From a virus, in the IMG/VR virus record IMGVR_UViG_3300045972_000071, positions 1 to 64,000 of that record: 64,000 nucleotides of DNA; one strand, given 5' to 3'. Shown piece after piece: positions 3,179 through 44,396 of the stretch. The position numbers were made by a program, and so were the translations under genes. Numbering within the stretch: position 1 is the first letter of the stretch; each line of letters begins with the position of its first letter. Under the pieces are notes generated by a model that did not search any database, was not told the DNA's origin, and was given only the letters and a program-made list of their open reading frames with translations.

Positions 3179-3514
3179 ATGAGTGTGAACTTTTCGGTGG
3201 TCGTGGTTTTGAACCAGAAGTATGAAGAACAAGATGGTACGGAGACCGAGAACTTTGAGGTCTTGTCCAGCAAACTCGATCTTGGCAACTTCCGTGCTAA
3301 CCGTTTCATCTGTCCAATCAACTCACATGGCAACATCGACGACTTCGGTGAGCGCACCCTCACAACTGACGAGGACATCAACTTCTACATGAATGGTCTT
3401 ATGAAGATTGACACCCTGCAGACCGAGATTGCTTACCGTTACATCACTGCTATTCAGATGCGAATCCTTGGATGCACTGGTTCATCACTTGAGTTACACG
3501 TCTGCTGGAGCTAA
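3179..3514 (+). CDS. Hypothetical early protein
   Basis: RBS GGAGGT, promoter unit upstream. Confidence 0.7.
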   Translation: MSVNFSVVVVLNQKYEEQDGTETENFEVLSSKLDLGNFRANRFICPINSHGNIDDFGERTLTTDEDINFYMNGLMKIDTLQTEIAYRYITAIQMRILGCTGSSLELHVCWS

Positions 3515-3557
3515 CGAACAGAACAAGTGCCCGCAGACGCGGTAGGAGATATCAGCC

Positions 3558-3872
3558 ATGGTAGAGAAAACTCACAACCCATTCTTCCTCAAAATTTACA
3601 AAGCGATGTTTATCAATGGTAACGGTGGACTGTGCCGTTGGGGTTCATCAGCTTGGAACACAGCCTTTGGATATCGACACAAACTTCCACTGACTACCGA
3701 AGACTGTGGCACATCCTGGGCATCAATCTACAATGAAGATGGAACCCTCTGTATTGAGGTGCAACTGCTACCCATAGGACCGAAGGGAACAAGAAAGCAC
3801 CGAGTGACCACGTTCTGCAATAAATGTAAGACCTTCATTCCAGCGGGTAGAATCCATCAGCATAAGTGTTAA
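3558..3872 (+). CDS. Hypothetical early protein with a C-terminal CxxC...HxxxC Zn motif
   Basis: RBS AGGAG; CNKC...HQHKC. Confidence 0.7.
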   Translation: MVEKTHNPFFLKIYKAMFINGNGGLCRWGSSAWNTAFGYRHKLPLTTEDCGTSWASIYNEDGTLCIEVQLLPIGPKGTRKHRVTTFCNKCKTFIPAGRIHQHKC

Positions 3873-3887
3873 TCACTGGGTAGATCA

Positions 3888-3923
3888 TGGGCTGTGGGTC
3901 TCGGGATTCACGGCCCTTTCTTT
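3888..3923 (+). terminator. Intrinsic terminator
   Basis: gggctgtgggtc-tcgg-gattcacggccc-tttcttt. Confidence 0.7.
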
Positions 3924-4252
3924 ATGTATTCCTCTGCCACGCCCAGTTCATAGTTATTACCAATGACGGACCATCTTGTACTACTAAGCTAGACGCTTTC
4001 GTGGTCATATTCTAGTGGATGCTGACAATCCATTGATTAGCCACATTCTCTGCCACGCTTTGATACAAAGTGCTTGTTCTAATATGTCTAAATGATTGCC
4101 ACAGCTTACGAATGATGTGTCCAGCGGTAGTAATGGGTATATAACACCGATGAAACTGCTATTCTACTGAGATAAGCCCGTTTGAGTCCTGATGTGGCTG
4201 ACTGCTGGCTGTGGAATGAGTGCGAGACCGTCTGAATGTGGTGGACGTGAAC

Positions 4253-7283: not shown

Positions 7284-7544
7284 ATGGCAAAATACGATCC
7301 GAAGAACACCGTAATTCAACTAGGGGAGAGGTATGTCCAGGGATATAGCCTCAAAACAGATAAGGTATACTGCACGGCATATACGAGTGATGCTAAACGA
7401 TTCACAGCAGAGGCCGCACAGGTATTCCTTAGAGAACACTGTGGGAAAGATAGAGGCATTGAATATAAGCATATTATATTGCACTTGATTAAACCAGGAC
7501 AGCCGTTTAGACCGTACGATGATGATGGCAATCTTTCTTCATAG
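7284..7544 (+). CDS. Hypothetical early protein
   Basis: Operonic ORF. Confidence 0.55.
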   Translation: MAKYDPKNTVIQLGERYVQGYSLKTDKVYCTAYTSDAKRFTAEAAQVFLREHCGKDRGIEYKHIILHLIKPGQPFRPYDDDGNLSS

Positions 7545-7734
7545 GCGTGTACATTTAGCTTGATCGCCTTATATGACCATGAGATTATGTCTCATAGAAG
7601 TTAAATTCAAGACACAGATTGGAGTCCAAAATGAGAAAGCCAGCCGACAAGCATGTATGTGAAAAATGTTATTGTAAGTTCAACTCGATGGTCTTCACAG
7701 TTCGCATCGTCAATGGCAAGTTCTACTGCGATAA

Positions 7735-7941
7735 GTGCGAGGTGGCAAAGTGAAATCGTCACTCTTTGATGTATGGGGAACTACGAACAGGCAACCACGA
7801 TATCTTGTTGCATCGTACGGCGATAAAGAACTTGCCAAAGCACATGCAAATCGACTACGCAAAACACTCACGAAGGGCGAGCGTTGGTACTACAAACTCA
7901 GTTACATCACAAAGAGGGGGACATCAAATGGCAACAATTAA
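7735..7941 (+). CDS. Hypothetical early protein
   Basis: Operonic ORF; start uncertain. Confidence 0.5.
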   Translation: MRGGKVKSSLFDVWGTTNRQPRYLVASYGDKELAKAHANRLRKTLTKGERWYYKLSYITKRGTSNGNN

Positions 7942-8203
7942 CAGAGAAGAACTGGCACAGTTTATCAAAGACACAGGTGGCAAGATATTCACTGCCACTT
8001 TTGTGAAGAAAGATAACTCTGTCCGCAACATGAATTGTCGCAAGGGAGTCCACGCATTCACACATGGTGGCACGAACAAAGCGGCAGAGTCTCACAAGAA
8101 CCTCAACATCGTATTTGACATGCAGGCACATGAATATCGCATGATAAACATGGAGACCGTAACCAAAATCAAATTTCAGAAAAAAGAATACGAGGTGGTG
8201 TAA
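7928..8203 (+). CDS. Conserved phage protein (SH3/WYL-like fold)
   Basis: GKIFTATFVKKDNSVRNMNCRKGV...VFDM...YRMIN pattern, common in phage proteins. Confidence 0.6.
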   Translation: MATINREELAQFIKDTGGKIFTATFVKKDNSVRNMNCRKGVHAFTHGGTNKAAESHKNLNIVFDMQAHEYRMINMETVTKIKFQKKEYEVV

Positions 8204-8562
8204 TGGGTGACTTCCACGACATGCTACACAGAAACATGGCGAAAGCCGAAGCTATCTATCCATCACTTAGACGAAAGTACCAGTGGCAACATGTTAAACT
8301 GATCTTCACCGAAGAAGAGAACGGGAAAGCCGGGCAAAGCTGGCAGTCCAGTTCTACAATCGAAGTGAACTTTCACTATGCTGATTCATACAAGGTCATT
8401 GAGTGGGTCATTGTCCACGAATTGTGTCACATCATTACTCCACTGATATACCCCAACGATCATCTTGTATGCTCCGACCGTGATCTGGATGAGAACCACT
8501 CAATCAACTGGGTCATTGTGATGCAAAATATGGGGTACGATCCCTCTACACACATTGGTTAA
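8203..8562 (+). CDS. SprT-like zinc metalloprotease
   Basis: HELCH (HExxH) plus a downstream H...W; AG motif. Confidence 0.7.
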   Translation: MGDFHDMLHRNMAKAEAIYPSLRRKYQWQHVKLIFTEEENGKAGQSWQSSSTIEVNFHYADSYKVIEWVIVHELCHIITPLIYPNDHLVCSDRDLDENHSINWVIVMQNMGYDPSTHIG

Positions 8563-8660
8563 AAATCTTAATTGGACTGCATATTTCTCTTGTAGTATAT
8601 GCAGTCCATGCTAGAGTACATGTACATAGAAGTTAAATTTAGTATGTAAAGGAGTTCAAG

Positions 8661-9371
8661 ATGGATGATGAAAAATTGGCGGCGATGAACAAGATTATGA
8701 AACTGCTGGAACTGGGCAAAGATGCAAACGGTGCTTACGGGCCGGAGCAAGAAGCCGCAAACACGATGGCCGCAAAGCTGATGGCCAAATGGGCAGTTGA
8801 CTTCACTGATCTGCGTGGGATGGACGCTAAGTCCAACGTCTTTGAAAAGCACAAGATTGACCCGCTGGACTGCGTGTACTGTGATTGGGAAGCCACACTG
8901 GCAAACGCCATCGGCACTGCGTTCGATGTACGTGTCATTAATGCACGTCAGCCGGTATGGTACTTGAACTTTCTTGGCACAAAGACTGACCTTGAAATTG
9001 CTATATTCTTCTATCGTCATTTGAGAAGAACGGTATGCCGCAAGTCTGAGACCGAGTTCAAGCGCAAAGCGGATCAGGAAACGTATGCATTCGGTATGGT
9101 TCGAACGATTGCATCCAGACTTACTGATTTGTACAAGCGCCGACAAGAAGTGATGGAGTCTGATTGTCGTGCAATGGTCATTGTCAAGCAAGACGGTCTG
9201 CAGGATTTTGTCAAAGATCAATTTCCCGTAATACGTCAGGGACGCTCCACAAAGCTGAAAGGGTCTAGCGCCGCATACGCTCAGGGACAAGCTGACGGGC
9301 ACAAAGTCGGTCTGAATCGTCCGATTGCTGGAAATGCTGATCTGAAACCTAGACTTTCTCGGGGACACTGA
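8661..9371 (+). CDS. DUF2786-family protein
   Basis: N-terminal KIMKLLELG...EQEAA..MAAKLMAKW; C-terminal AYAQGQADG. Confidence 0.75.
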   Translation: MDDEKLAAMNKIMKLLELGKDANGAYGPEQEAANTMAAKLMAKWAVDFTDLRGMDAKSNVFEKHKIDPLDCVYCDWEATLANAIGTAFDVRVINARQPVWYLNFLGTKTDLEIAIFFYRHLRRTVCRKSETEFKRKADQETYAFGMVRTIASRLTDLYKRRQEVMESDCRAMVIVKQDGLQDFVKDQFPVIRQGRSTKLKGSSAAYAQGQADGHKVGLNRPIAGNADLKPRLSRGH

Positions 9372-10481: not shown

Positions 10482-11345
10482 ATGCGAGAAAGAACCTTTG
10501 AAGAAATCCAAGAGATTCGTCAAGACGTGGCTTCACGTTATGCAGATGTCACGTTTCCAGATATAGTGCTTGAACCTGTGTGGTGGGGCAGACGCCCTGA
10601 GAATCGTGTCGATGAACACTATGCTATTGTTGACCAGAACACTAACAAAGTGTTCAACATCTGCACCGAGAAGTACAAACCCGTTTATCACGAACTTATC
10701 ATCCATAACGTGGAGCAAGCCGCTGTGGAAATGCCCCAGTTCGGTGTGCCCAAGATCAAAGTTGATATGATCGGTGATGGTGCAAAGATGCGAGTGAACG
10801 TCATGTTCCCCGAGGTTGACTACATGGTCAAATCCGGTGATATATTTCACCCAACTTCTGATATCAAAACATCATACGATCTGGGATGGAAGTATACTGT
10901 TGACTTCGGTGCGTATCGTCTGGTATGTTCTAACGGACTTAAAGTGGGTGAGGTATTTGAGTCATTCAAGAAACGTCACATGACAGGACTGGATCCAAAC
11001 ATTCTGTCGGAGACACTGAATGCTGGTATGCTTCGATTCGATGAACAGACCCAGCTTTGGCAGAAGTGGGCTGAGAAAGCAATTCCTCATGCAGACTATG
11101 AGACTATCTGGGAGGAACTCCCTTTCTCAAAACCTGAGCGTGAAAAGATTGAAGCAATCACCGGCGCTGGAAACAATCTGATTCTTGCCCAGGAGATCAA
11201 GAAAGATAACCAGATCACTCTGTGGGATATGTTTAATAACACCACACAATATGTTACACATAATATTAACAGTGTGCTGAGACGTGTGGAGATAGGTCCT
11301 GAGATAACCCGTGTATTTGAAAGAGCATTTCATTCCATAAAATAA
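10482..11345 (+). CDS. DUF932/DUF945-family protein
   Basis: KYKPVYHE...SYD...GAYRLVCSNGL...KRH...TLWDMFNNTTQYVTH. Confidence 0.8.
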   Translation: MRERTFEEIQEIRQDVASRYADVTFPDIVLEPVWWGRRPENRVDEHYAIVDQNTNKVFNICTEKYKPVYHELIIHNVEQAAVEMPQFGVPKIKVDMIGDGAKMRVNVMFPEVDYMVKSGDIFHPTSDIKTSYDLGWKYTVDFGAYRLVCSNGLKVGEVFESFKKRHMTGLDPNILSETLNAGMLRFDEQTQLWQKWAEKAIPHADYETIWEELPFSKPEREKIEAITGAGNNLILAQEIKKDNQITLWDMFNNTTQYVTHNINSVLRRVEIGPEITRVFERAFHSIK

Positions 11346-11406
11346 TTATGTTGACGATTATCCTTATTATGATTATAGTAAGGATAATCTGACATAAGGA
11401 GTTATT

Positions 11407-11523
11407 ATGGAACAATGTGAATGTTTGCGGTGCGGTCATAGTTGGTTACCCAGAGTAGAAAAACCCAAAGCGTGTCCTTGTTGTATGAGTTATAAATGGA
11501 ACGTACCAAGGAGGTCAAAATGA
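11407..11523 (+). CDS. 38-aa Zn-ribbon peptide translationally coupled to an HNH gene
   Basis: MEQCECLRCGHSWLPRVEKPKACPCC...; RBS TAAGGAG; ATGA overlap with the HNH start. Confidence 0.65.
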   Translation: MEQCECLRCGHSWLPRVEKPKACPCCMSYKWNVPRRSK

Positions 11524-11963
11524 GAACAGGAAGACCTAAAACTCATGGAATGACTGGTACCCCCATACATAATACATGGTTAGCAATGATTGATCGGTGT
11601 TTCGGAAAAGAGAAGTTTAACCCTTCTTATAAAAGAAGGGGCATAATTGTGTGTGAACGCTGGTTAAAATTTGAAAACTTCTTTGAAGATATGGGAGAAC
11701 GTCCATTTAAAAATGCACAAATAGAAAGAACCAATAATGATGGTAATTATGAACCAGGTAATTGTGAGTGGACCACCCAAAAACAAAATAGCCGAAATCG
11801 TATTAGTACAATAAGGGTTGAGTATAATGATAAAATAATGGCCCTATCTGAGGTCGCTGAAATTATAGGAATGAAACCCGGTACTCTATATGATAGACAC
11901 ATTAAACGTGGATGGTCATTACATGAGGCTATACATAAACCTCTACATAGGGTATTAGAATAG
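11520..11963 (+). CDS. HNH homing endonuclease
   Basis: HG...WxxMxxRC...RGIxVCERWLKFENFFEDMG...IERxNNDGNYEPGNCEW. Confidence 0.85.
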   Translation: MRTGRPKTHGMTGTPIHNTWLAMIDRCFGKEKFNPSYKRRGIIVCERWLKFENFFEDMGERPFKNAQIERTNNDGNYEPGNCEWTTQKQNSRNRISTIRVEYNDKIMALSEVAEIIGMKPGTLYDRHIKRGWSLHEAIHKPLHRVLE

Positions 11964-12007
11964 AGATTGGACCGGAGATAACCAAAGTCTTTGAACGTCA
12001 CGACTAA
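11957..12007 (+). pseudogene. Orphaned original 3' end of the DUF932 gene
   Basis: Reads RIEIGPEITKVFERHD* versus the current end RVEIGPEITRVFERAFHSIK*. Confidence 0.85.
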
Positions 12008-12016
12008 CTATCTGCC

Positions 12017-12070
12017 AGAGGGCATTATGAATGCATGAAACACTATGCAGACGTAATGCCCTCTTTTTAT
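12017..12070 (+). terminator. Intrinsic terminator
   Basis: agagggcatta...taatgccctct-tttt. Confidence 0.65.
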
Positions 12071-12199
12071 GCCAAGAATCTGATGTGGACGATCTGTGGC
12101 TAAAAATATTAGTAGGAGTGAAAATAATCGTTGCTGTCCTTATCTTACCATGAGATTCTATAATTACTAGAAGTTCAATTAAAAAGAGAAGGAGTTCAC

Positions 12200-13651
12200 A
12201 TGCAGTGGTCAGATCAACAAAACGCTATCTTTGATTGGTTCAAGGGGGGTTCTGGAAATCTTGTAGTAAGAGCCAGAGCGGGAACAGGCAAGACAACCAC
12301 GATAGTTCAAGCGATATCGTATGCACCAGAAAATTCTATTCTGCTTGGTGCATTCAACAAACGTATTGCTTCCGAACTCCAAACAAAACTCACTAATCCC
12401 AAAGCAGTTGCAAAGACGTTTCATGCACTGGGATACGGAATGATCTTAGGGAACTGGAAGGGTGCAGTTCTCGATCAGTACCGCTCAGACAGCATGGCAC
12501 GTGAACTTTTCCCAGATGTCCCGGATCCGATTATCACATCTATCAAGAAGCTAGCTTCCCTCGCTAAAAACATCTGCCCTTTCTTCTCCATAGAGAAACT
12601 AATTGATATCTGTTATGTACACGATATTGACGCCGACGAGCAAATGATTGATCTGGGGTGGAACATCTCCAAGATTGCTACTCATGCCGCAAAGCTACTC
12701 GACAAAGCCGCAGAACGCAATGGTACGTTTGACTTTGACGATATGCTTTATATCCCAATCAAGAACTCTTGGATACGCAAGCGTTATGATCTTGTCGTAA
12801 TTGACGAAGCCCAAGACATGAATGCTTCACAGCTTATCATGGCAAAGAAGTTGGGCAAAGCCCGCATTGTCGTTGTTGGTGACGACAAACAAGCGATATA
12901 TGCATTCCGAGGTGCTGATAGCAATTCGATTGACAGATTGAAGGGCGAGTTATCCGCTAAAGAACTTGGACTGACGATCACATATCGTTGCCCTAAGAAT
13001 GTCGTTCAGCACATCAAGTGGATTGTTCCTGACTTCATCGCCGCAGATGAAGCCCCTGATGGAGTCGTTCGATCACTTGCATACTCCGCAATGATTGCCG
13101 AAGCAGAACCTGGCGACTTCATTCTCAGCAGAATCAATGCGCCCTTAACCCGTACTTGCTTCAAACTGCTTGCACTGGACAAACGTGCTTGTGTTGAGGG
13201 GCGTGAAATAGGGCAGACACTCAAGAAGATTGTTAAAGGGCTGAAAGCAACCACTATTGAAGAGATGGTAGACAAGCTACAGACTTGGCATACAAATCAG
13301 ATTGAGCGTATCACTAAAACAGCGAGTCGATGCGCGGAGACCAAGATTGAGCATGTCAACGATCAAGTGGCTATGCTCAATGTCTTTGCTGAAAATGCTA
13401 CTACTGTTGACGACCTCTTAATCAAACTGGAGACAATGTTTCAGCACACTGACGGGGGAAAGCTGGATGTGATTGTCTGCTCTTCCGTACACAAAGCGAA
13501 GGGGTTGGAGCGCAACAGAGTTTACGGACTTTGTGACACTCTATACCCAGGGGGCAGTAAGAACTCCTCATGTGTTGAGGAACGTAATATTGAGTACGTC
13601 ATGGTAACACGTGCCAAGAGTGAGTTCATCTGCGTAACAGGGATTCACTAG
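12200..13651 (+). CDS. UvrD/Rep superfamily 1 helicase
   Basis: ARAGTGKTT, DEAQD, VGDDKQAIYAFRGA, TYRCP, SVHKAKGLE, YVMVTRAK. Confidence 0.92.
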   Translation: MQWSDQQNAIFDWFKGGSGNLVVRARAGTGKTTTIVQAISYAPENSILLGAFNKRIASELQTKLTNPKAVAKTFHALGYGMILGNWKGAVLDQYRSDSMARELFPDVPDPIITSIKKLASLAKNICPFFSIEKLIDICYVHDIDADEQMIDLGWNISKIATHAAKLLDKAAERNGTFDFDDMLYIPIKNSWIRKRYDLVVIDEAQDMNASQLIMAKKLGKARIVVVGDDKQAIYAFRGADSNSIDRLKGELSAKELGLTITYRCPKNVVQHIKWIVPDFIAADEAPDGVVRSLAYSAMIAEAEPGDFILSRINAPLTRTCFKLLALDKRACVEGREIGQTLKKIVKGLKATTIEEMVDKLQTWHTNQIERITKTASRCAETKIEHVNDQVAMLNVFAENATTVDDLLIKLETMFQHTDGGKLDVIVCSSVHKAKGLERNRVYGLCDTLYPGGSKNSSCVEERNIEYVMVTRAKSEFICVTGIH

Positions 13652-13848: not shown

Positions 13849-14175
13849 ATGTACAAAATTGCAAGCACCAGAAAGCAGTTCTCGGAAGAATGTTGCCGCA
13901 GACTCACAGGAAGTGAAGCGGGCGAGTACATGGAGCGATTCGTCAACGTCATGTCACATGCAACGGAGGACAAAGACTTTGTTGAGTACATCGTACACCG
14001 CACCCATCGTACACTGAATCAGTCATTCATTGGGCTGATGCTCAAGGTTCTAGTCGAAGAAGCATCCTTGCACACTACGGGACGATTTGACGGCAGAAAC
14101 GAAGCGTCGGTCAAGACTTGCAAATCCATCGTTGAGAGAATGGATGGGGCAGATATGTATCTGCCATTCATATAA
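13849..14175 (+). CDS. Hypothetical protein
   Basis: HRTLNQ...DGRNEAS phage-type motif. Confidence 0.6.
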   Translation: MYKIASTRKQFSEECCRRLTGSEAGEYMERFVNVMSHATEDKDFVEYIVHRTHRTLNQSFIGLMLKVLVEEASLHTTGRFDGRNEASVKTCKSIVERMDGADMYLPFI

Positions 14176-15751: not shown

Positions 15752-15951
15752 GTATATCCATGAAGATGATAAAAGAAGTTTCTATGCGTCTGGAGCAGGA
15801 ACGCATTGCGAAAGATGTACTCCTGAAAGGATGGGAGAAGTATAATAAAAATGGTGGTAGTGATTCTTACGAACGCTGGAAAGAGAATCTTCTTGTCCAC
15901 TATATCATTGGATCTATGGAACGTGATAACTTCAAAGGATCAGGGATATGA
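15748..15951 (+). CDS. Hypothetical protein
   Basis: Overlapping operonic ORF. Confidence 0.55.
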   Translation: MSISMKMIKEVSMRLEQERIAKDVLLKGWEKYNKNGGSDSYERWKENLLVHYIIGSMERDNFKGSGI

Positions 15952-17321
15952 AACCTGTTTATACAATAACAATACATAACCCAGTGGAAGCGTCTTGCAC
16001 TGCGGTTCTTGCGGGGCTGATAAAGCCCTGCATATCATTCCCTACATCATTCTGGGTGCAAGGACCATTCAAGAAGGTTCGCAAAGAGTCCACAAAGTCA
16101 ATGCTCACTAAAGGTAAAGGAAGCATGTATTACTTCTGGGCTGGACTGCTTGACAGAGTTCTGGAGCATTGTGCCGAGAATGGTATTGAGGTAGAAGTTG
16201 TTGATAAAGCGTATGAAGAGTTTAATATCTATGAACCCGAACTACCAGGAATTACCTTCCGTCCAGATCAGGCGTCACTTATCAACTCATTTCTTGATAA
16301 ACCTAGGGGCATTCTCGAATCGTTCACAGGCAGTGGTAAGACTGTGCTTGGTTTTGGCTGTCTGTCTGCATTTCCGGACTATAGAGCGTTATGGTTGTGC
16401 CACACTAAAGGACTAATGCAACAAGCCTATGACGAAGCATGTAAGTTCGGATTCAAAAGTGTGGGGCGTGTCGGGGATGGGCATTCAGAATATACCAAGG
16501 ATATCACTATTGCCACGCGGCAGAGTTTTAAACGACTTGCCGATGAGTTTGGTCATGAGTATGACATAGTTGTGGTGGATGAAGTACACCATGTTGCTGA
16601 TTTAAAGTCAGAATATGCCTATGTACTTGCCCGAGTACCTGCCCCCATTCGATTAGGACTGTCTGCTACTCTTCACAAAGAGGGCACAGAAGCATGGTAC
16701 ACGTCAGTAGGACTACTAGGTCCGATACTCCAATCATTGTCGATCAATGACGGTGCTGAACTTGGCATCTTAGCCACACCGACTATCAGAATTTTACGTT
16801 GTCCTAAAGATCACGAAGTATCAGCCATGAAGATGTATTCCCATGTATATTCTGCTGGGGTTGTAAATAACCTTTACATGAATAACCTGATAGCCGTAAC
16901 TGCTAAGAAACACTCCGATGCCAATGAAACCGTACTGATAATGATTAATCAGATTGAGCATGGGGAGAACATACAAAGATTGCTTGACGCTTTGCATGTA
17001 AAGAACATCTTTATACGAGGAGCCACGAAATCAGAAGTACGGGATGATACAAAACATGCTCTGAATCGTCACGAAATCAATGTTGTTATATGTTCCTCAG
17101 TATGGACAGAGGGAATAAACATTCCTACTCTCCAAGTTGTTATCAACGCAGCTGGTGGCAAAGATGAAAAGGCTGTATTGCAGAAAGTAGGGCGTGGTCT
17201 GAGAAAGACCGCAGAGAAAGACTCCGTAATTATTTATGACACGTTCAATGTATCACATAGGTATCTGATTGAACACTTCGGGGAGCGTCTATGTATTTAC
17301 CTAGATAATAATTGGCTATAA
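15948..17321 (+). CDS. Superfamily 2 (UvsW-like) DExH helicase
   Basis: TGSGKT, DEVHH, GLSAT, EGINIP, QKVGRGLR. Confidence 0.92.
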   Translation: MKPVYTITIHNPVEASCTAVLAGLIKPCISFPTSFWVQGPFKKVRKESTKSMLTKGKGSMYYFWAGLLDRVLEHCAENGIEVEVVDKAYEEFNIYEPELPGITFRPDQASLINSFLDKPRGILESFTGSGKTVLGFGCLSAFPDYRALWLCHTKGLMQQAYDEACKFGFKSVGRVGDGHSEYTKDITIATRQSFKRLADEFGHEYDIVVVDEVHHVADLKSEYAYVLARVPAPIRLGLSATLHKEGTEAWYTSVGLLGPILQSLSINDGAELGILATPTIRILRCPKDHEVSAMKMYSHVYSAGVVNNLYMNNLIAVTAKKHSDANETVLIMINQIEHGENIQRLLDALHVKNIFIRGATKSEVRDDTKHALNRHEINVVICSSVWTEGINIPTLQVVINAAGGKDEKAVLQKVGRGLRKTAEKDSVIIYDTFNVSHRYLIEHFGERLCIYLDNNWL

Positions 17322-17388
17322 ATCTAACTATTGACTTCTTATAATTTTATGATAATATACACATTAGATTAAATCATAAGGAGTGATT

Positions 17389-18012
17389 ATGAAAATTAAA
17401 AGGCGAATGATTGGTAAACGATTTGGCAGATGGATAATAGATTCATTACATAATCTAGCCCCAGGTAAAAAGTGGAACTGTATATGTGATTGTGGTACAG
17501 AGAAATCCGTTTACGAATATTCTCTTAAAAATGGTAGTTCCCAATCTTGTGGGTGTCTAACAAGGGATAGATCCATTGAAACTCATTCAACACATAATGG
17601 AACTTATAAACCAGAATACAGGGTGTGGGCGGCAATGAAGTCAAGATGTAGTAATCCAAAAGATTTATCCTTTCATAATTATGGAGGTAGAGGGATCAAA
17701 GTGTGTGAGTCATGGTTATCTTTTGAAAATTTCTATACAGATATGGGTCCATGTCCTAAAGGGCTTGAACTTGACAGGATTAATAATGACGGCAATTATG
17801 AACCTGGTAATTGTGAGTGGGTTACTAAATCAGCTAACGACAGGAACCGCAGAAATACACTTATGCTAACCTTAAATGGGGTAACTAAAGCGATGAAAAC
17901 TTGGTCTGAGGAATATGGTATTCCCCATCACACTGTTAGGTACAGAATAAAACGAGGATGGGAACCAAATCTAGCACTCACCATAAAAGTAGGTGAAAAG
18001 TATGAAGCATAA
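17389..18012 (+). CDS. HNH homing endonuclease
   Basis: CICDCG...SCGC...WAAMKSRC...YGGRGIKVC...LDRINNDGNYEPGNCEW. Confidence 0.88.
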   Translation: MKIKRRMIGKRFGRWIIDSLHNLAPGKKWNCICDCGTEKSVYEYSLKNGSSQSCGCLTRDRSIETHSTHNGTYKPEYRVWAAMKSRCSNPKDLSFHNYGGRGIKVCESWLSFENFYTDMGPCPKGLELDRINNDGNYEPGNCEWVTKSANDRNRRNTLMLTLNGVTKAMKTWSEEYGIPHHTVRYRIKRGWEPNLALTIKVGEKYEA

Positions 18013-23483: not shown

Positions 23484-24137
23484 ATGCCTAGAATTTATTC
23501 AATTTTTCAGAGTGTAGAAGGGGAAGTAAACGCACGTGGTATCGGTGCAATGACTGTGTTCATTCGATTTGCGGGTTGTCACGCCACATGTACATTCTGT
23601 GATACAACGTATGCAAAGGATCCTGCAAGCGGGCGTGTAATGTCAGTAAGTGAAGTTATGGAAGAGGTATCTAAGTATAACTGTCCGAACGTCACTATCA
23701 CTGGCGGTGAACCTATGGAGCAGTATGACGAACTTTGTAACCTGCTTCATGCTCTGGATGCAAATCAGTATAATGTGTCCGTAGAAACTAACGGACTGCA
23801 TTCTTTCTGGCGCAGAAATGCACCGATGATACATGCAACCTTTGTTGTGGATATCAAGAATGAAGGATTTATGGCATTATCCCGTATTGTAAACATGGGG
23901 CTTACATCTTCTGACATACTCAAAATGGTAGTGGGCAGTGAAGCTGACTTTGCTGTGGCGTGTACACGAAAGAGAGAATTGCAAGAACGTGGTGTTAAAG
24001 CCAGATTCGCATTTTCTCCAGAGTTCGGGAAAGTAGATCCAGACAGGATTCTTTCTTGGATGAAGAAATACGATCAAAATGATGCTATCCTTAATTTTCA
24101 GGCCCACAAAGTGCTTAATTTGACAGAGAATAATTAA
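23484..24137 (+). CDS. queE: 7-carboxy-7-deazaguanine synthase (radical SAM)
   Basis: IFQSVEGE, FIRFAGCHATCTFCDT, ITGGEP, VETNG, QAHK. Confidence 0.93.
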   Translation: MPRIYSIFQSVEGEVNARGIGAMTVFIRFAGCHATCTFCDTTYAKDPASGRVMSVSEVMEEVSKYNCPNVTITGGEPMEQYDELCNLLHALDANQYNVSVETNGLHSFWRRNAPMIHATFVVDIKNEGFMALSRIVNMGLTSSDILKMVVGSEADFAVACTRKRELQERGVKARFAFSPEFGKVDPDRILSWMKKYDQNDAILNFQAHKVLNLTENN

Positions 24138-24196: not shown

Positions 24197-24817
24197 ATGG
24201 GATGCAGTGTATTGGGTTGTACAAACCATGAATTTAGTACAGGGCATGGGGACAGAAAGAAAAGAACAGGTAAATGTAGAAAACATCACTATAATTTACC
24301 TAGTAGACACTTGACCAGTGATCCAAATATATATGTGATAGATGGTCCTATATGCAGGATAACGTGCCATAAAAAAGATAACTCTATCGCAGGTTATGCC
24401 ATAATAGATACAGAAGATATGGAAAAATGTATTCCTTATAAATGGGGAATAACTTCGGATGGGTATGTAGTAAACGGTAAAAATCAAATTCGCCTGCATC
24501 ATCTAATTATGAATCATATTCCAGATAAAAATCACCCTATAGATCATAAAAATAGAATAAAATTGGATTGCAGAAAAGAGAATATGGAATTATCCACATA
24601 TTCTAAAAATAATGTGAATAGGGATTTAAAAAACAATACTTCCGGTCATAAATGTGTTTATTGGAATAAACACGCTAAATCTTGGGATGTAAGAATAACT
24701 AGGAATAAGATATGCACTCAATTAGGGTACTACAAAACTCTTGAGAAAGCCATAGAAGTTAGGGATACTTTTTATATCCAGCTTCATAAGGTATTGAACT
24801 TAACTGAGACTAACTAG
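24197..24817 (+). CDS. HNH-AP2 homing endonuclease whose tail is the original QueE C-terminus
   Basis: LHHLIM...IDHKNRIKLDCRKENM, AP2-like SGHKCVYW; ends QLHKVLNLTETN. Confidence 0.85.
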   Translation: MGCSVLGCTNHEFSTGHGDRKKRTGKCRKHHYNLPSRHLTSDPNIYVIDGPICRITCHKKDNSIAGYAIIDTEDMEKCIPYKWGITSDGYVVNGKNQIRLHHLIMNHIPDKNHPIDHKNRIKLDCRKENMELSTYSKNNVNRDLKNNTSGHKCVYWNKHAKSWDVRITRNKICTQLGYYKTLEKAIEVRDTFYIQLHKVLNLTETN

Positions 24818-28721: not shown

Positions 28722-29526
28722 CGGGGGATTAGACAGCTTCATCATGTACAATATGGCAAAGTTTTATCATCCGGGCGATGAAATTATTGCTGTATACTTC
28801 GATCACGGCGCTTCCTACTGTAAGCGGGAGATAGAAAAACTCCCCGACTTTGTGCAAGTACGCAAGCTCGACTGGCTCGATGAAACCCACACTACTGTTA
28901 CACAACCAGGTAGACGTGAAGGTGCAATTATGATACCGGGACGTAATCTGGTGTTTGCTACCGCACTCGTTTGTCAAGAACTACCTGACGAACTTTGGAT
29001 TGGTGCTCTACACGGTGAGACACATGAGAAGGGTACGGACAAGAACTACACGTTCCTTGCTAAGATGAATGAAACCCTTAATTATGTTGTCGGTCCTTTC
29101 CGAAACAAGGTTCCTATGTACTGTAAGTTCCCCCTTGCTGATTTGAAGTTGGATAAACTCGATTCAGTTAAGTGGGCACTCACTCATGGAATTAGTCGTG
29201 AACAACTGATGCGTACTCGCTCCTGTCATGATGGTAGTACAGATAAGTGTGGTGCTTGTATTCAGTGTGTTAAACGATGGGCTGTGTTCGGGGCATGTGG
29301 ATTCACCGAACTGTATGATACACATCCACTTGATTCGGAATTCGGTAAGAAATTCGTATCTGACCTGGTCAAGTGTGAACTTGGGGAAGATGATTACTAC
29401 GGAGAAGAGACAAGAGCGGAGATAATGCCACATCTACATTTCATGGCTAACACATTCCCTTCTCTCTTCGAGGAAGAAACACTTGCTGATATCCGTAGAC
29501 TACAAAATCTGAGTAGGGATTACTAA
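28690..29526 (+). CDS. queC: QueC-like ATP-dependent enzyme (divergent 7-cyano-7-deazaguanine synthase family)
   Basis: YSGGLDS PP-loop, IPGRN, TRSC...CGACIQC; the usual YPDC motif reads GTDK. Confidence 0.85.
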   Translation: MTKKKIAILYSGGLDSFIMYNMAKFYHPGDEIIAVYFDHGASYCKREIEKLPDFVQVRKLDWLDETHTTVTQPGRREGAIMIPGRNLVFATALVCQELPDELWIGALHGETHEKGTDKNYTFLAKMNETLNYVVGPFRNKVPMYCKFPLADLKLDKLDSVKWALTHGISREQLMRTRSCHDGSTDKCGACIQCVKRWAVFGACGFTELYDTHPLDSEFGKKFVSDLVKCELGEDDYYGEETRAEIMPHLHFMANTFPSLFEEETLADIRRLQNLSRDY

Positions 29527-29573
29527 TGGATAGTTCAATCTTTCTCGACTCTTTATTATTCTTGACTTTATAG
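29526..29573 (+). pseudogene. Orphaned original 5' end of the TGT/DpdA-like gene
   Basis: ATG GAT AGT TCA ATC TTT CTC GAC TCT = MDSSIFLDS, coupled to the queC stop codon (TAATG). Confidence 0.88.
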
Positions 29574-29620: not shown

Positions 29621-30403
29621 ATGTCAGAATGTATTTGGGAAGGTTGCACAGAGGATGGTAATAATAAAGGATACTGTAAAAAACATTATGATAAATGGTA
29701 TTACAAATTGTGTAGAGAGAAAGCCGGACTAGCCCAATATACAAATCAAAATCCCATAAGAAAACGGACAAAAATAACCGGTACATGCAATGTGGAGGGA
29801 TGTGACTCACAAATTCACTGTAAGGGTGTTTGCTACAGGCATTATCTACATCTACGAAATCATGGAGAAATTAGGGAGAGAACTAGAATAACTCCTAATG
29901 ATTTTATCATTGACGGCGACACCTGTAAAATAGGTTGTTATAACATCTACTGTGATCTAGTAGGTTATGCTTTAATTGATGCCGAAGATGTAGATAGATG
30001 CAAACCACATAAATGGTATTTTGAAGTAGATGGTTATGTGAGTAGTACAACAGCAGGAAGTTTGCACCATTTTATATTAGGCACTAAACCTAGAAGTGGT
30101 GTATTTCCAGATCATAAAAACAGAGTATGCCATGATAATAGGAAAGATAATTTAAGAATTGCAACCACATCACAAAATGCCTGTAATTCTAAAATAAACT
30201 CCCGTAATAAAACAGGATATAAGGGTGTTTACTTTAACGGAAAAGAGTTTGTAGTTTATATATGTTCAAACGGTAAAAACAATCTTGTGGGTAAGTACAA
30301 TACGAAGGAGGAAGCGGCTATGATTTACAACCAGAAAGCCAAAGAGCTTCACGGAGAGTTTGCATTTCAAAATACTCTCAAAGAGAGTGTGGTCATTGGA
30401 TAG
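29621..30403 (+). CDS. HNH-AP2 homing endonuclease
   Basis: C/H Zn motifs, LHHFIL...DHKNRVCHDNRKDNLR, TGYKGV...EEAA..YN..AKELHGEFA. Confidence 0.88.
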   Translation: MSECIWEGCTEDGNNKGYCKKHYDKWYYKLCREKAGLAQYTNQNPIRKRTKITGTCNVEGCDSQIHCKGVCYRHYLHLRNHGEIRERTRITPNDFIIDGDTCKIGCYNIYCDLVGYALIDAEDVDRCKPHKWYFEVDGYVSSTTAGSLHHFILGTKPRSGVFPDHKNRVCHDNRKDNLRIATTSQNACNSKINSRNKTGYKGVYFNGKEFVVYICSNGKNNLVGKYNTKEEAAMIYNQKAKELHGEFAFQNTLKESVVIG

Positions 30404-31262
30404 TTCAATATTCCTCGATAGTGGTGCTTTCTCCGCAATGACATCTGGACAGACCCTAGATGTGTATGCCTACATTGATTATGTCAATGAGCATAAGGAG
30501 TTCTTTGATCTGTATGCTAACCTTGACGTAATAGGTTCTGCTGAAGGTACATGGAAGAATCAAAGGATAATGGAGAAAGCGGGACTTAATCCATTACCTG
30601 TCTATCACATCAATGAAGATCCTAAGTTTCTTGCGATGGCAATGGAGTATGATTACTTTGCTGTTGGGGGAATGGCAAGATCGAGTTCCGCTTCATTGCA
30701 GTTCCAAGTAGATGAAATATTCTCTATCATCTGCCCGAAGAGCAACGACTATTTTCCTACTCATAAAATACATGGGTTCGGAACTACTAAACCAAGTATC
30801 ATGGTCAGCTACCCCTGGTACTCTGTTGACTCTTCTTCATGGGTTAAATATGGTCTGTACGGTATTGTGCTGATACCCCGATTCTTTCACGGTAAGCCTA
30901 CATACAATAAGCCACCTATGACTGTTGTTATGTCGAACAGATCAAAAGCAATCGGAGATCAACTCCACTTTGCAAACATTTCAGCAATGGAAAAGGAAGC
31001 TATCCTTAACTACTTTGCTGAGAAAGGTATCTCTATAGGAGAATCTTACATCGTCAATGTTGAAGCAGGGCACGAACTGCTGGACAATGAAGTCTGGATA
31101 AACAAAGAGAAGACGAAAGTGGAACAGATTTGTGAGTACGGTCTGATAAATAATCATGTAGCCCGTGACCATGCAAACTTGCTTTACTTTCTTGACCTTG
31201 AGAAGTTTCAGCAGAAGTGGCCATGGCAGTGGAAAAAGAAATCAGGGAGATTAGATATATGA
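30396..31262 (+). CDS. dpdA: TGT-fold DNA 7-deazaguanine transglycosylase (DpdA-like)
   Basis: FLDSGAF, LDVIG, PVYH, AVGG, KIHGFG, SVDSSSW; lies in the que cluster; TTG start inferred. Confidence 0.8.
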   Translation: MDSSIFLDSGAFSAMTSGQTLDVYAYIDYVNEHKEFFDLYANLDVIGSAEGTWKNQRIMEKAGLNPLPVYHINEDPKFLAMAMEYDYFAVGGMARSSSASLQFQVDEIFSIICPKSNDYFPTHKIHGFGTTKPSIMVSYPWYSVDSSSWVKYGLYGIVLIPRFFHGKPTYNKPPMTVVMSNRSKAIGDQLHFANISAMEKEAILNYFAEKGISIGESYIVNVEAGHELLDNEVWINKEKTKVEQICEYGLINNHVARDHANLLYFLDLEKFQQKWPWQWKKKSGRLDI

Positions 31263-43760: not shown

Positions 43761-44396
43761 ATGAGAGGTAAGAAAGTATGTAAAATTGAAGGATGTGGTG
43801 CTTACTGTTTTGGTAATGGTCTGTGTGGCAAGCATTATAGACAAATGCGGGATTACGGTAAAATATTTGCACGAACTATAAAAGACCCAAATGATTTTAT
43901 AATAGATGGTTCTATATGCAGAATAGGATGTTATGATTTGAAACATAATTTAAAAGGATATATAATAATAGATGCAGAGGACAGTGAAAAATGTAAACCG
44001 TTCAAATGGAATATGGGAACCGGTGGTCCTGTAGCTAAAGGAATAGTTTTGACTAATTTGATAATGAATAATGACCCAACTACAAAATTGGTAGTGGATC
44101 ACAAAGATAGGAATACTTGGGATAATAGGAAAGACAACCTCAGAATATGTACAGTTAAGGAAAACGCCAGAAATAGGGTTCATCCTAAAAATAAATCAGG
44201 TTACCGTGGAGTATCTTGGAGTAATAAAGAAAATAAATGGATTGCCACGATTCAACACGATAGTAAGCAAATGAGATTAGGATGTTTTACCGATATAATC
44301 GAAGCGGCAAAAATGTATAATATGATGGCAAAGGAGCTACACGGTGAGTTTGCGGTTCTGAATAAAATTCCACTTATTAGGAGAAGAAATGGTTGA
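43761..44396 (+). CDS. HNH-AP2 homing endonuclease
   Basis: VDHKDRNTWDNRKDNLR, SGYRGV, LGCF..IIEAAKMYN..AKELHGEFA. Confidence 0.88.
   Translation: MRGKKVCKIEGCGAYCFGNGLCGKHYRQMRDYGKIFARTIKDPNDFIIDGSICRIGCYDLKHNLKGYIIIDAEDSEKCKPFKWNMGTGGPVAKGIVLTNLIMNNDPTTKLVVDHKDRNTWDNRKDNLRICTVKENARNRVHPKNKSGYRGVSWSNKENKWIATIQHDSKQMRLGCFTDIIEAAKMYNMMAKELHGEFAVLNKIPLIRRRNG

Follow-up and report, generated by a model that had tools for sequence, protein, structure and literature searches.

How can a nuclease gene settle in the coding sequence of another gene, with no intron or intein to remove it, and leave that gene whole? Homing endonucleases borne by introns or inteins invade coding DNA without loss of the host gene, and their target site is interrupted by the insertion. 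Free-standing homing endonucleases such as those of the seg and mob families of T4-like phages spread by 'intronless homing' (Edgell et al. 2010, PMC2988022). The main text of that review places them between genes, or within a gene that is split into two polypeptides, as for mobE in nrdA of Aeh1 and mobA in gene 60. A further layout is described from fungal mitochondria, where mobile ORFs (mORFs) make gene hybrids in atp6 of Allomyces macrogynus and in atp6, atp9, cox2 and nad3 of Glomus sp. (Beaudet et al. 2013, PMC3630166): a foreign C-terminal is inserted and the native C-terminal is left stranded. Here, we describe a phage locus in which the 3' end of a DUF932-family gene occurs twice, once in the intact gene and once behind a small cassette that encodes an HNH-like protein. 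The source record is an 87,617-bp IMG/VR phage from pond metagenomes, rated complete by CheckV, and "the window" is the stretch analysed, its first 64 kb. The features of the locus are as follows.

10482–11345, + strand: intact DUF932-family gene, 287 aa (Pfam PF06067, E 3.8e-12)
11244–11345, + strand: working tail of this gene (copy 1 of the duplicate at 11283–11324), probably imported with the cassette, as judged from GC3 and identity to relatives; its left limit is uncertain and lies at about 11200–11280
11351–11389, + strand: promoter-like site TTGACG-17-TATAGT (11351–11379) with an overlapping 15-nt inverted repeat; consensus match only
11407–11523, + strand: 38-aa zinc-ribbon ORF, the first cassette gene (CxxC..CxxC pattern)
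11520–11963, + strand: 147-aa HNH-like ORF (PHROG 3377, structure model), its stop TAG 5–7 bases inside the stranded tail
11957–12007, + strand: stranded copy, comprising the last 16 codons and the stop, without a start codon and out of the HNH frame (frame translation)
12017–12070, + strand: intrinsic terminator, probably the gene's original one (hairpin 12017–12064, then UUUUUA)

Results

The DUF932 gene reads to its own stop codon through the C-terminus RVEIGPEITRVFERAFHSIK (also given as LRRVEIGPEITRVFERAFHSIK), and the tail positions that are conserved in an alignment of homologues, P273, I275, F279 and E280, are all present in its product. Behind the cassette, the stranded copy reads RIEIGPEITKVFERHD up to a stop codon in another frame; a TAG at 11948–11950 stands just ahead of it, and this frame offers no ATG, GTG or TTG to open translation. 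Compared with 11283–11324, the stranded copy is identical at 12 of 14 residues and at 29 of 42 bases, with different codons at six of the twelve identical residues. Both the second gene end behind the cassette (10482–11345 and 11957–12007) and the mainly synonymous character of its differences are therefore present as the preliminary description had reported them. When the 64-kb window was shuffled 20 times, matches to the 14-residue tail peptide in six-frame translation reached at most 9/14, while in the real window only two matches exceed 6/14, the gene's own (14/14) and the stranded copy (12/14). The tail-motif pattern occurs twice in the window and once in each of three related loci (L003, L004 and L005). 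The remnant is homologous to the gene from codon 268 onward, without the invariant Arg267, so that the right junction, and with it probably the break, falls at about 11956–11957.

The material between the two copies differs in composition from its surroundings, with a GC content of 0.33–0.38 in the cassette against 0.43–0.50 in both flanks, and the HNH-like ORF itself has a GC of 0.36 and a GC3 of 0.25. Its start overlaps the stop of the zinc-ribbon ORF in ATGA. A Pfam search with the zinc-ribbon ORF returned no match; its neighbours according to a protein language model are small rubredoxin-like proteins. By this low GC content, and by the relatives of its genes described below, the cassette looks foreign and mobile, which agrees with the earlier proposal that a mobile nuclease cassette lies within the coding 3' end of the DUF932 gene. 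The promoter that had been placed at its head stands in part: a site matching the consensus at 10 of 12 positions is present, and the number of such sites in the region (six) shows no excess over shuffled sequence (4.7 +/- 2.2). The arms of the inverted repeat (11356–11370 and 11375–11389) are 93% complementary, lie 4 nt apart and cover the -10 element; the repeat at 11356–11389 may act as an operator or fold into a hairpin in the RNA.

Ten bases past the stranded copy, the terminator hairpin at 12017–12064 has a folding energy of -28.8 kcal/mol (z -5.45) and is followed by a U run, so that the terminator named in the preliminary description is real, although a simple consensus scan did not pick it up. 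The stranded copy, as read earlier, is a dead remnant beside this terminator. An intron was considered and rejected: an Rfam search of 11000–12300 found zero intron families at E <= 1, stop codons separate the parts, and the ORFs have starts of their own. Nothing speaks in favour of a fusion of the HNH-like protein to the stranded tail by frameshifting or read-through. With the second tail copy keeping the gene whole, the earlier view that it was rescued without splicing is borne out.

The assignment of the 147-aa protein is less direct. Searched against PHROG it matches families 3377 (2.6e-42) and 374 (6.8e-38), both named 'HNH endonuclease', and it has no match in Pfam, NCBIfam or PDB sequences; the Pfam model HNH_3 detects three other HNH genes of the genome and misses this one. 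An AlphaFold model built with an alignment of 46 family members (pLDDT 92) contains a predicted beta-beta-alpha unit at residues 67–92, with strands at 67–70 and 82–85 and a helix at 87–92. Foldseek returned nothing for this model at E <= 0.001 and placed I-HmuI in its top row (E 0.7), and the best fold match in VIA-align is the HNH nuclease PacI with Z 6.9, where Z 8 marks a clear match (rmsd 3.6 over 79 residues). The C-terminal part, small and helical, resembles DNA-binding domains only weakly (Z 2.3–2.6), among them those of I-TevI and I-HmuI. The canonical catalytic histidine at the end of the first strand is not there: all 46 aligned members carry an arginine at this position (Arg70). 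Asn81 is invariant among them and Asn93 nearly so. Because the label thus depends on a PHROG name and a middling fold match, with arginine at the histidine position throughout the family, we regard the protein as a probable nuclease, whose activity would require another general base. His9 and Cys27 are nearly invariant and Cys45 and Cys82 invariant in the same 46 members; these four residues may make up a structural zinc site.

We then asked how the locus compares with its relatives. There are 41 homologues of the DUF932 protein, of 241–303 aa and at most 66% identical to it. A search for loci with the single protein found nothing; with the alignment, it returned 8 and 24 loci, the nearest 58% identical. 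From these 32 loci, 23 were tested, after nine had been dropped (two identical copies, four without the gene's 3' end, two with fewer than 200 bases downstream, and one weak N-terminal match); the 23 were counted as distinct, yet some are near-identical to one another. The preliminary description had tied the duplicated gene end to the HNH gene, and the relatives agree: none of the 23 carries an HNH gene of this family downstream of DUF932, and in none is the gene's tail repeated in the 2 kb that follow it (best 6/12, against 11/12 in the window). Since the relatives with DNA context are at most 58% identical, the empty site cannot be reconstructed from them, and no cassette-free allele was present among the contigs of two pond runs, contigs being prone to drop rare variants. 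By blastn against GenBank phages, 126 records match just 100–140 bases of the HNH gene at 72–78% identity, and none covers the DUF932 gene.

The cassette has relatives of its own. IMG/VR holds 103 relatives of the HNH protein, and a paralogue with 45% identity is encoded in the same genome at 17383–18012. In L004, a 37-aa homologue of the zinc-ribbon protein (52% identity, E 5e-9) precedes an HNH gene with the same ATGA overlap. As this homologous pair lies at another site, the zinc-ribbon and HNH genes appear to form a mobile unit that can occupy different sites. The L004 cassette (3247–3998 of IMGVR_UViG_3300023301_000017; zinc-ribbon 37 aa, HNH 213 aa) has a TTGACT-17-TATTAT site of its own and sits in the intergenic gap ahead of the DUF932 gene, behind the terminator of the preceding gene; its HNH stop overlaps the DUF932 start. 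A zinc-ribbon partner is not a general trait of the HNH family: a small ORF with a CxxC..CxxC pattern lies within 500 bases upstream in only 2 of 80 loci, and these are unrelated by eye. The cassette is therefore sporadic among relatives, has a homologue elsewhere and lies outside any detected intron or intein, as known for free-standing homing endonucleases.

The surroundings of the DUF932 gene also vary. In the window, a UvrD-like helicase gene (12200–13651, Pfam 4.6e-29) sits between it and the gene at 13849; L003 lacks the UvrD-like gene and has the homologue of the 13849 gene directly after DUF932. L003 also encodes, at 7344–8831, a homologue of the window's helicase at 15948–17321 with a long insertion after ..VDE, running from CFAKGT.. 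to ..VHNC and followed by HHVAD.., where the window's copy reads ..VDEVHHVAD.. without the insertion. From its sequence, this L003 insertion looks like an intein.

Five HNH genes were found in the genome, and the layout recurs at some of them. A genome-wide scan for duplicates, defined as nearby peptides with at least 9 of 12 identical residues spaced 150–1500 bases apart, returned nine pairs; ten shuffled genomes gave zero pairs in nine cases and one in the tenth. Three of the nine pairs straddle HNH genes, those at the DUF932 gene, at a QueE C-terminus and at a DpdA-like N-terminus, which are three of the genome's five. The QueE gene ends with QAHKVLNLTENN and its stop (24093–24137), and a counterpart QLHKVLNLTETN with its stop (24773–24817) forms the in-frame end of the HNH ORF at 24197–24817. 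Ten of twelve residues are identical in this pair, and eight of those ten are spelled differently. At the third site, the start MDSSIFLDS (29526–29552), coupled to the stop of a queC-like gene, runs into a stop before the HNH ORF at 29621–30403, behind which the DpdA-like ORF restarts with LDSSIFLDS (30396–30422), an N-terminal mirror image of the DUF932 case. The HNH genes at 17383–18012 and 43761–44396 have no flanking duplicate at the 9/12 level. The other six pairs straddle no inserted gene and were put down to repeated DNA or paralogous motifs. Among them, the pair 6459/6816 lies on the minus strand with plausible genes on the plus strand and was taken as repeated DNA, the pair 55534/56838 falls within two adjacent minus-strand genes, and the pairs 69155/69371 and 77574/77799 are spaced by about 220 bases.

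Outside this genome the layout is rare. IMG/VR provides 67 distinct loci of this HNH family with sufficient flanking DNA, and of these only L099 and L106 show the layout, both on phage contigs that are unrelated to the present one and carry the same nuclease family; a further locus at 8/12, L111, was left out of the count owing to low complexity. In L099 (2860–3884 of the 268-kb IMGVR_UViG_3300049217_000071), a 525-aa gene ends in FIELGNNKDLWVKTIEAVDIS and its stop, and a stranded FVELGNNKDLWIKTIESVDL with its stop lies behind a same-family HNH gene and a 73-aa ORF. This C-terminal duplicate is identical at 11 of 12 residues; over 25 codons, 18 residues are common, 13 of them spelled differently. 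The GC content is 0.38 in the HNH gene and 0.51 in the 525-aa gene. In L106 (2740–3400 of IMGVR_UViG_3300045988_173900), a stub starting MREILFKAKRLSDG precedes the HNH gene and a 131-aa gene behind it starts with MREILFKGKSLLSG; the stranded N-terminal copy matches at 8/12, against a maximum of 7 in a reverse-complement control. In the context of L106, HNH genes of about equal length (183–184 aa) that match the query with the same identity are present in L103 and L107–L109.

What do the differences between the copies say about their origin? When the base changes of the DUF932 pair were redistributed randomly in their observed number, 1 of 100,000 trials retained identity at 12 of 14 residues. 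The same test gave 0 of 100,000 for the QueE pair, 29 of 100,000 for the DpdA pair and 0 of 100,000 for the three pooled, a test that is biased toward conserved pairs, because the pairs were found by protein similarity. An untranslated copy whose differences from its partner are nevertheless almost entirely synonymous suggests tails that diverged within working genes of two lineages and came together only recently. The preliminary description had spoken of a recoded replacement C-terminus and of a cut site destroyed by the element; on the recoding we depart from it, since synonymous differences in a copy that has lost its translation fit tails diverged in two phage lineages, as with the fungal mobile ORFs, better than deliberate recoding, and a destroyed cut site is no more than conceivable.

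Of the two copies, the working one in front is likely the import, because it is joined to the cassette. Its composition and relatedness are weak indications that agree in direction. GC3 drops from 0.48 in codons 1–240 to 0.34 in codons 241–287 (Fisher p 0.08), with the best change point after codon 254; a GC3 as low as that of the working tail occurs in 13% of the 47-codon windows of neighbouring genes. Identity to the nearest homologue is 70% in the body and 42% in the tail, where 140 control pairs of similar body identity average 63 +/- 9%. Finally, a 349-nt contig from a pond relative aligns to 11106–11153 and then to the stranded copy at 11961–11997, not to the working copy. A tree of the copies' origin is precluded by the shortness of the tails and the distance of the relatives.

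Discussion

We consider it probable that homing, or repair of a DNA break, brought a donor tail together with the cassette into the DUF932 gene and stranded the resident tail. In this scenario, a free-standing homing cassette consisting of a promoter-like site, a zinc-ribbon ORF and an HNH-like ORF would enter the last ~20 codons of the gene through break repair. Repair would copy the donor phage's own DUF932 tail, its stop codon and then the cassette, and the resident tail from about codon 268 would stay behind the cassette, untranslated, beside the gene's terminator. Because the donor tail is copied in front, the gene would remain whole without splicing, and the insertion would also split the former target. 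That the two tails differ mostly at synonymous positions would follow from their divergence inside working genes of two lineages. The first event was likely one-sided, with homologous recombination toward the gene and an illegitimate join where the DNA was broken; the downstream neighbourhood, which varies among relatives, makes such an entry with an illegitimate right join plausible. One-sided events with illegitimate break repair are the T4 route into new sites in the main text of the seg/mob review (PMC2988022). During later spread, the gene body and the stranded tail with its terminator may serve as two homology arms.

The most serious competitor, which we nevertheless think unlikely, is an ordinary scar of illegitimate recombination, by which a module ending in DUF932 and the cassette was joined to another module starting in a DUF932 tail, the nuclease being uninvolved. 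The variable region downstream, exemplified by the UvrD-like gene missing from L003, and the near-synonymous differences suit any origin from two lineages, this one included. What it leaves to chance is that three of the genome's five HNH genes lie between such duplicates while the remaining six pairs enclose no inserted gene, and that the layout is found again at the HNH genes of L099 and L106. A duplication of the target site in place, with the working copy subsequently recoded by selection against recombination with the remnant and against re-cutting, would also produce differences that are almost all synonymous, and a homing element needs immunity to the enzyme that it encodes. The 13 changes in 42 bases would, however, need a long time, yet the remnant has not decayed, with its frame open to the stop and 12 of 14 residues retained. 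Moreover, the unusual divergence from the nearest relatives of the body extends over the entire last part of the gene, beyond the duplicated codons, and the fungal precedents show a foreign origin of the inserted end (PMC3630166). We therefore hold in-place recoding to be improbable, and more so than a recombination scar.

An assembly artefact, in which the contig is a chimera of two strains, is the least credible of the alternatives and in our judgement very nearly negligible. The record is indeed a metagenome assembly, and the run that spans the stretch in full may be the one from which the record was made. A single contig covers 9400–13800 at a depth of 13 with zero differences; a run from a second study contains identical pieces, including 11407–11557 inside the cassette; and the layout is present three times in the genome and again in other contigs. 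A donor tail introduced with the cassette thus remains the reading that we prefer.

The layout as such is known from fungal mitochondria, and a phage HNH-like cassette with a spare gene end would, by analogy, be a further case of it. As in the mORF hybrids, an in-frame C-terminal is followed by an endonuclease ORF in the 3' end of the gene and by a stranded C-terminal, which in the fungal cases is the native one and lies ~1 kb downstream (PMC3630166). The copies also resemble the fungal ones in combining low DNA with high protein identity, at 63.5%/91% for Glomus atp6 (PMC3630166) and 69%/86% here. The enzymes differ, since the fungal mORFs in this source encode organellar LAGLIDADG or GIY-YIG proteins and the present cassette encodes an HNH-like protein, with a separate zinc-ribbon gene, in a tailed phage. 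Compared with the mORFs described there, the duplicate is much shorter (14–16 codons), and the same genome holds an N-terminal mirror image. With seg and mob genes, as presented in the main text of PMC2988022, the cassette shares a free-standing nuclease gene that is sporadic among relatives and copied with flanking DNA, but those genes lie between genes or split their host; the word stem 'duplicat' is absent from the text of that review. From intron- and intein-borne systems it is set apart by the splicing element, present there; here, no Rfam intron family matches and stop codons separate the parts. The literature searched, including main text of PMC2988022, PMC10448857, PMC8351571 and PMC2248197, gave no description from a phage of a gene end duplicated beside a homing nuclease; one may exist elsewhere.

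Tentatively, and at slightly less than even confidence, we propose that, next to introns and inteins, bringing a spare gene end is a third general means by which phage homing nucleases can reside in coding DNA. The donor end would travel as part of the mobile unit, the right junction would mark the cut, and the stranded end would act as a homology arm; the strategy would be used in this phage at C- and N-termini, by two HNH families and at three of five nuclease genes.

At the DUF932 locus, a selfish nuclease gene would thus have settled in phage coding sequence without an intron, an intein or harm to the gene, and the stranded remnant would be a natural footprint of the probable cut site (about codons 267–268) and of the repair route. 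In genome annotation, short orphan duplicates of a gene end that lie beside nuclease genes may mark recent invasions and chimeric tails, and such chimeric tails can mislead gene phylogenies.
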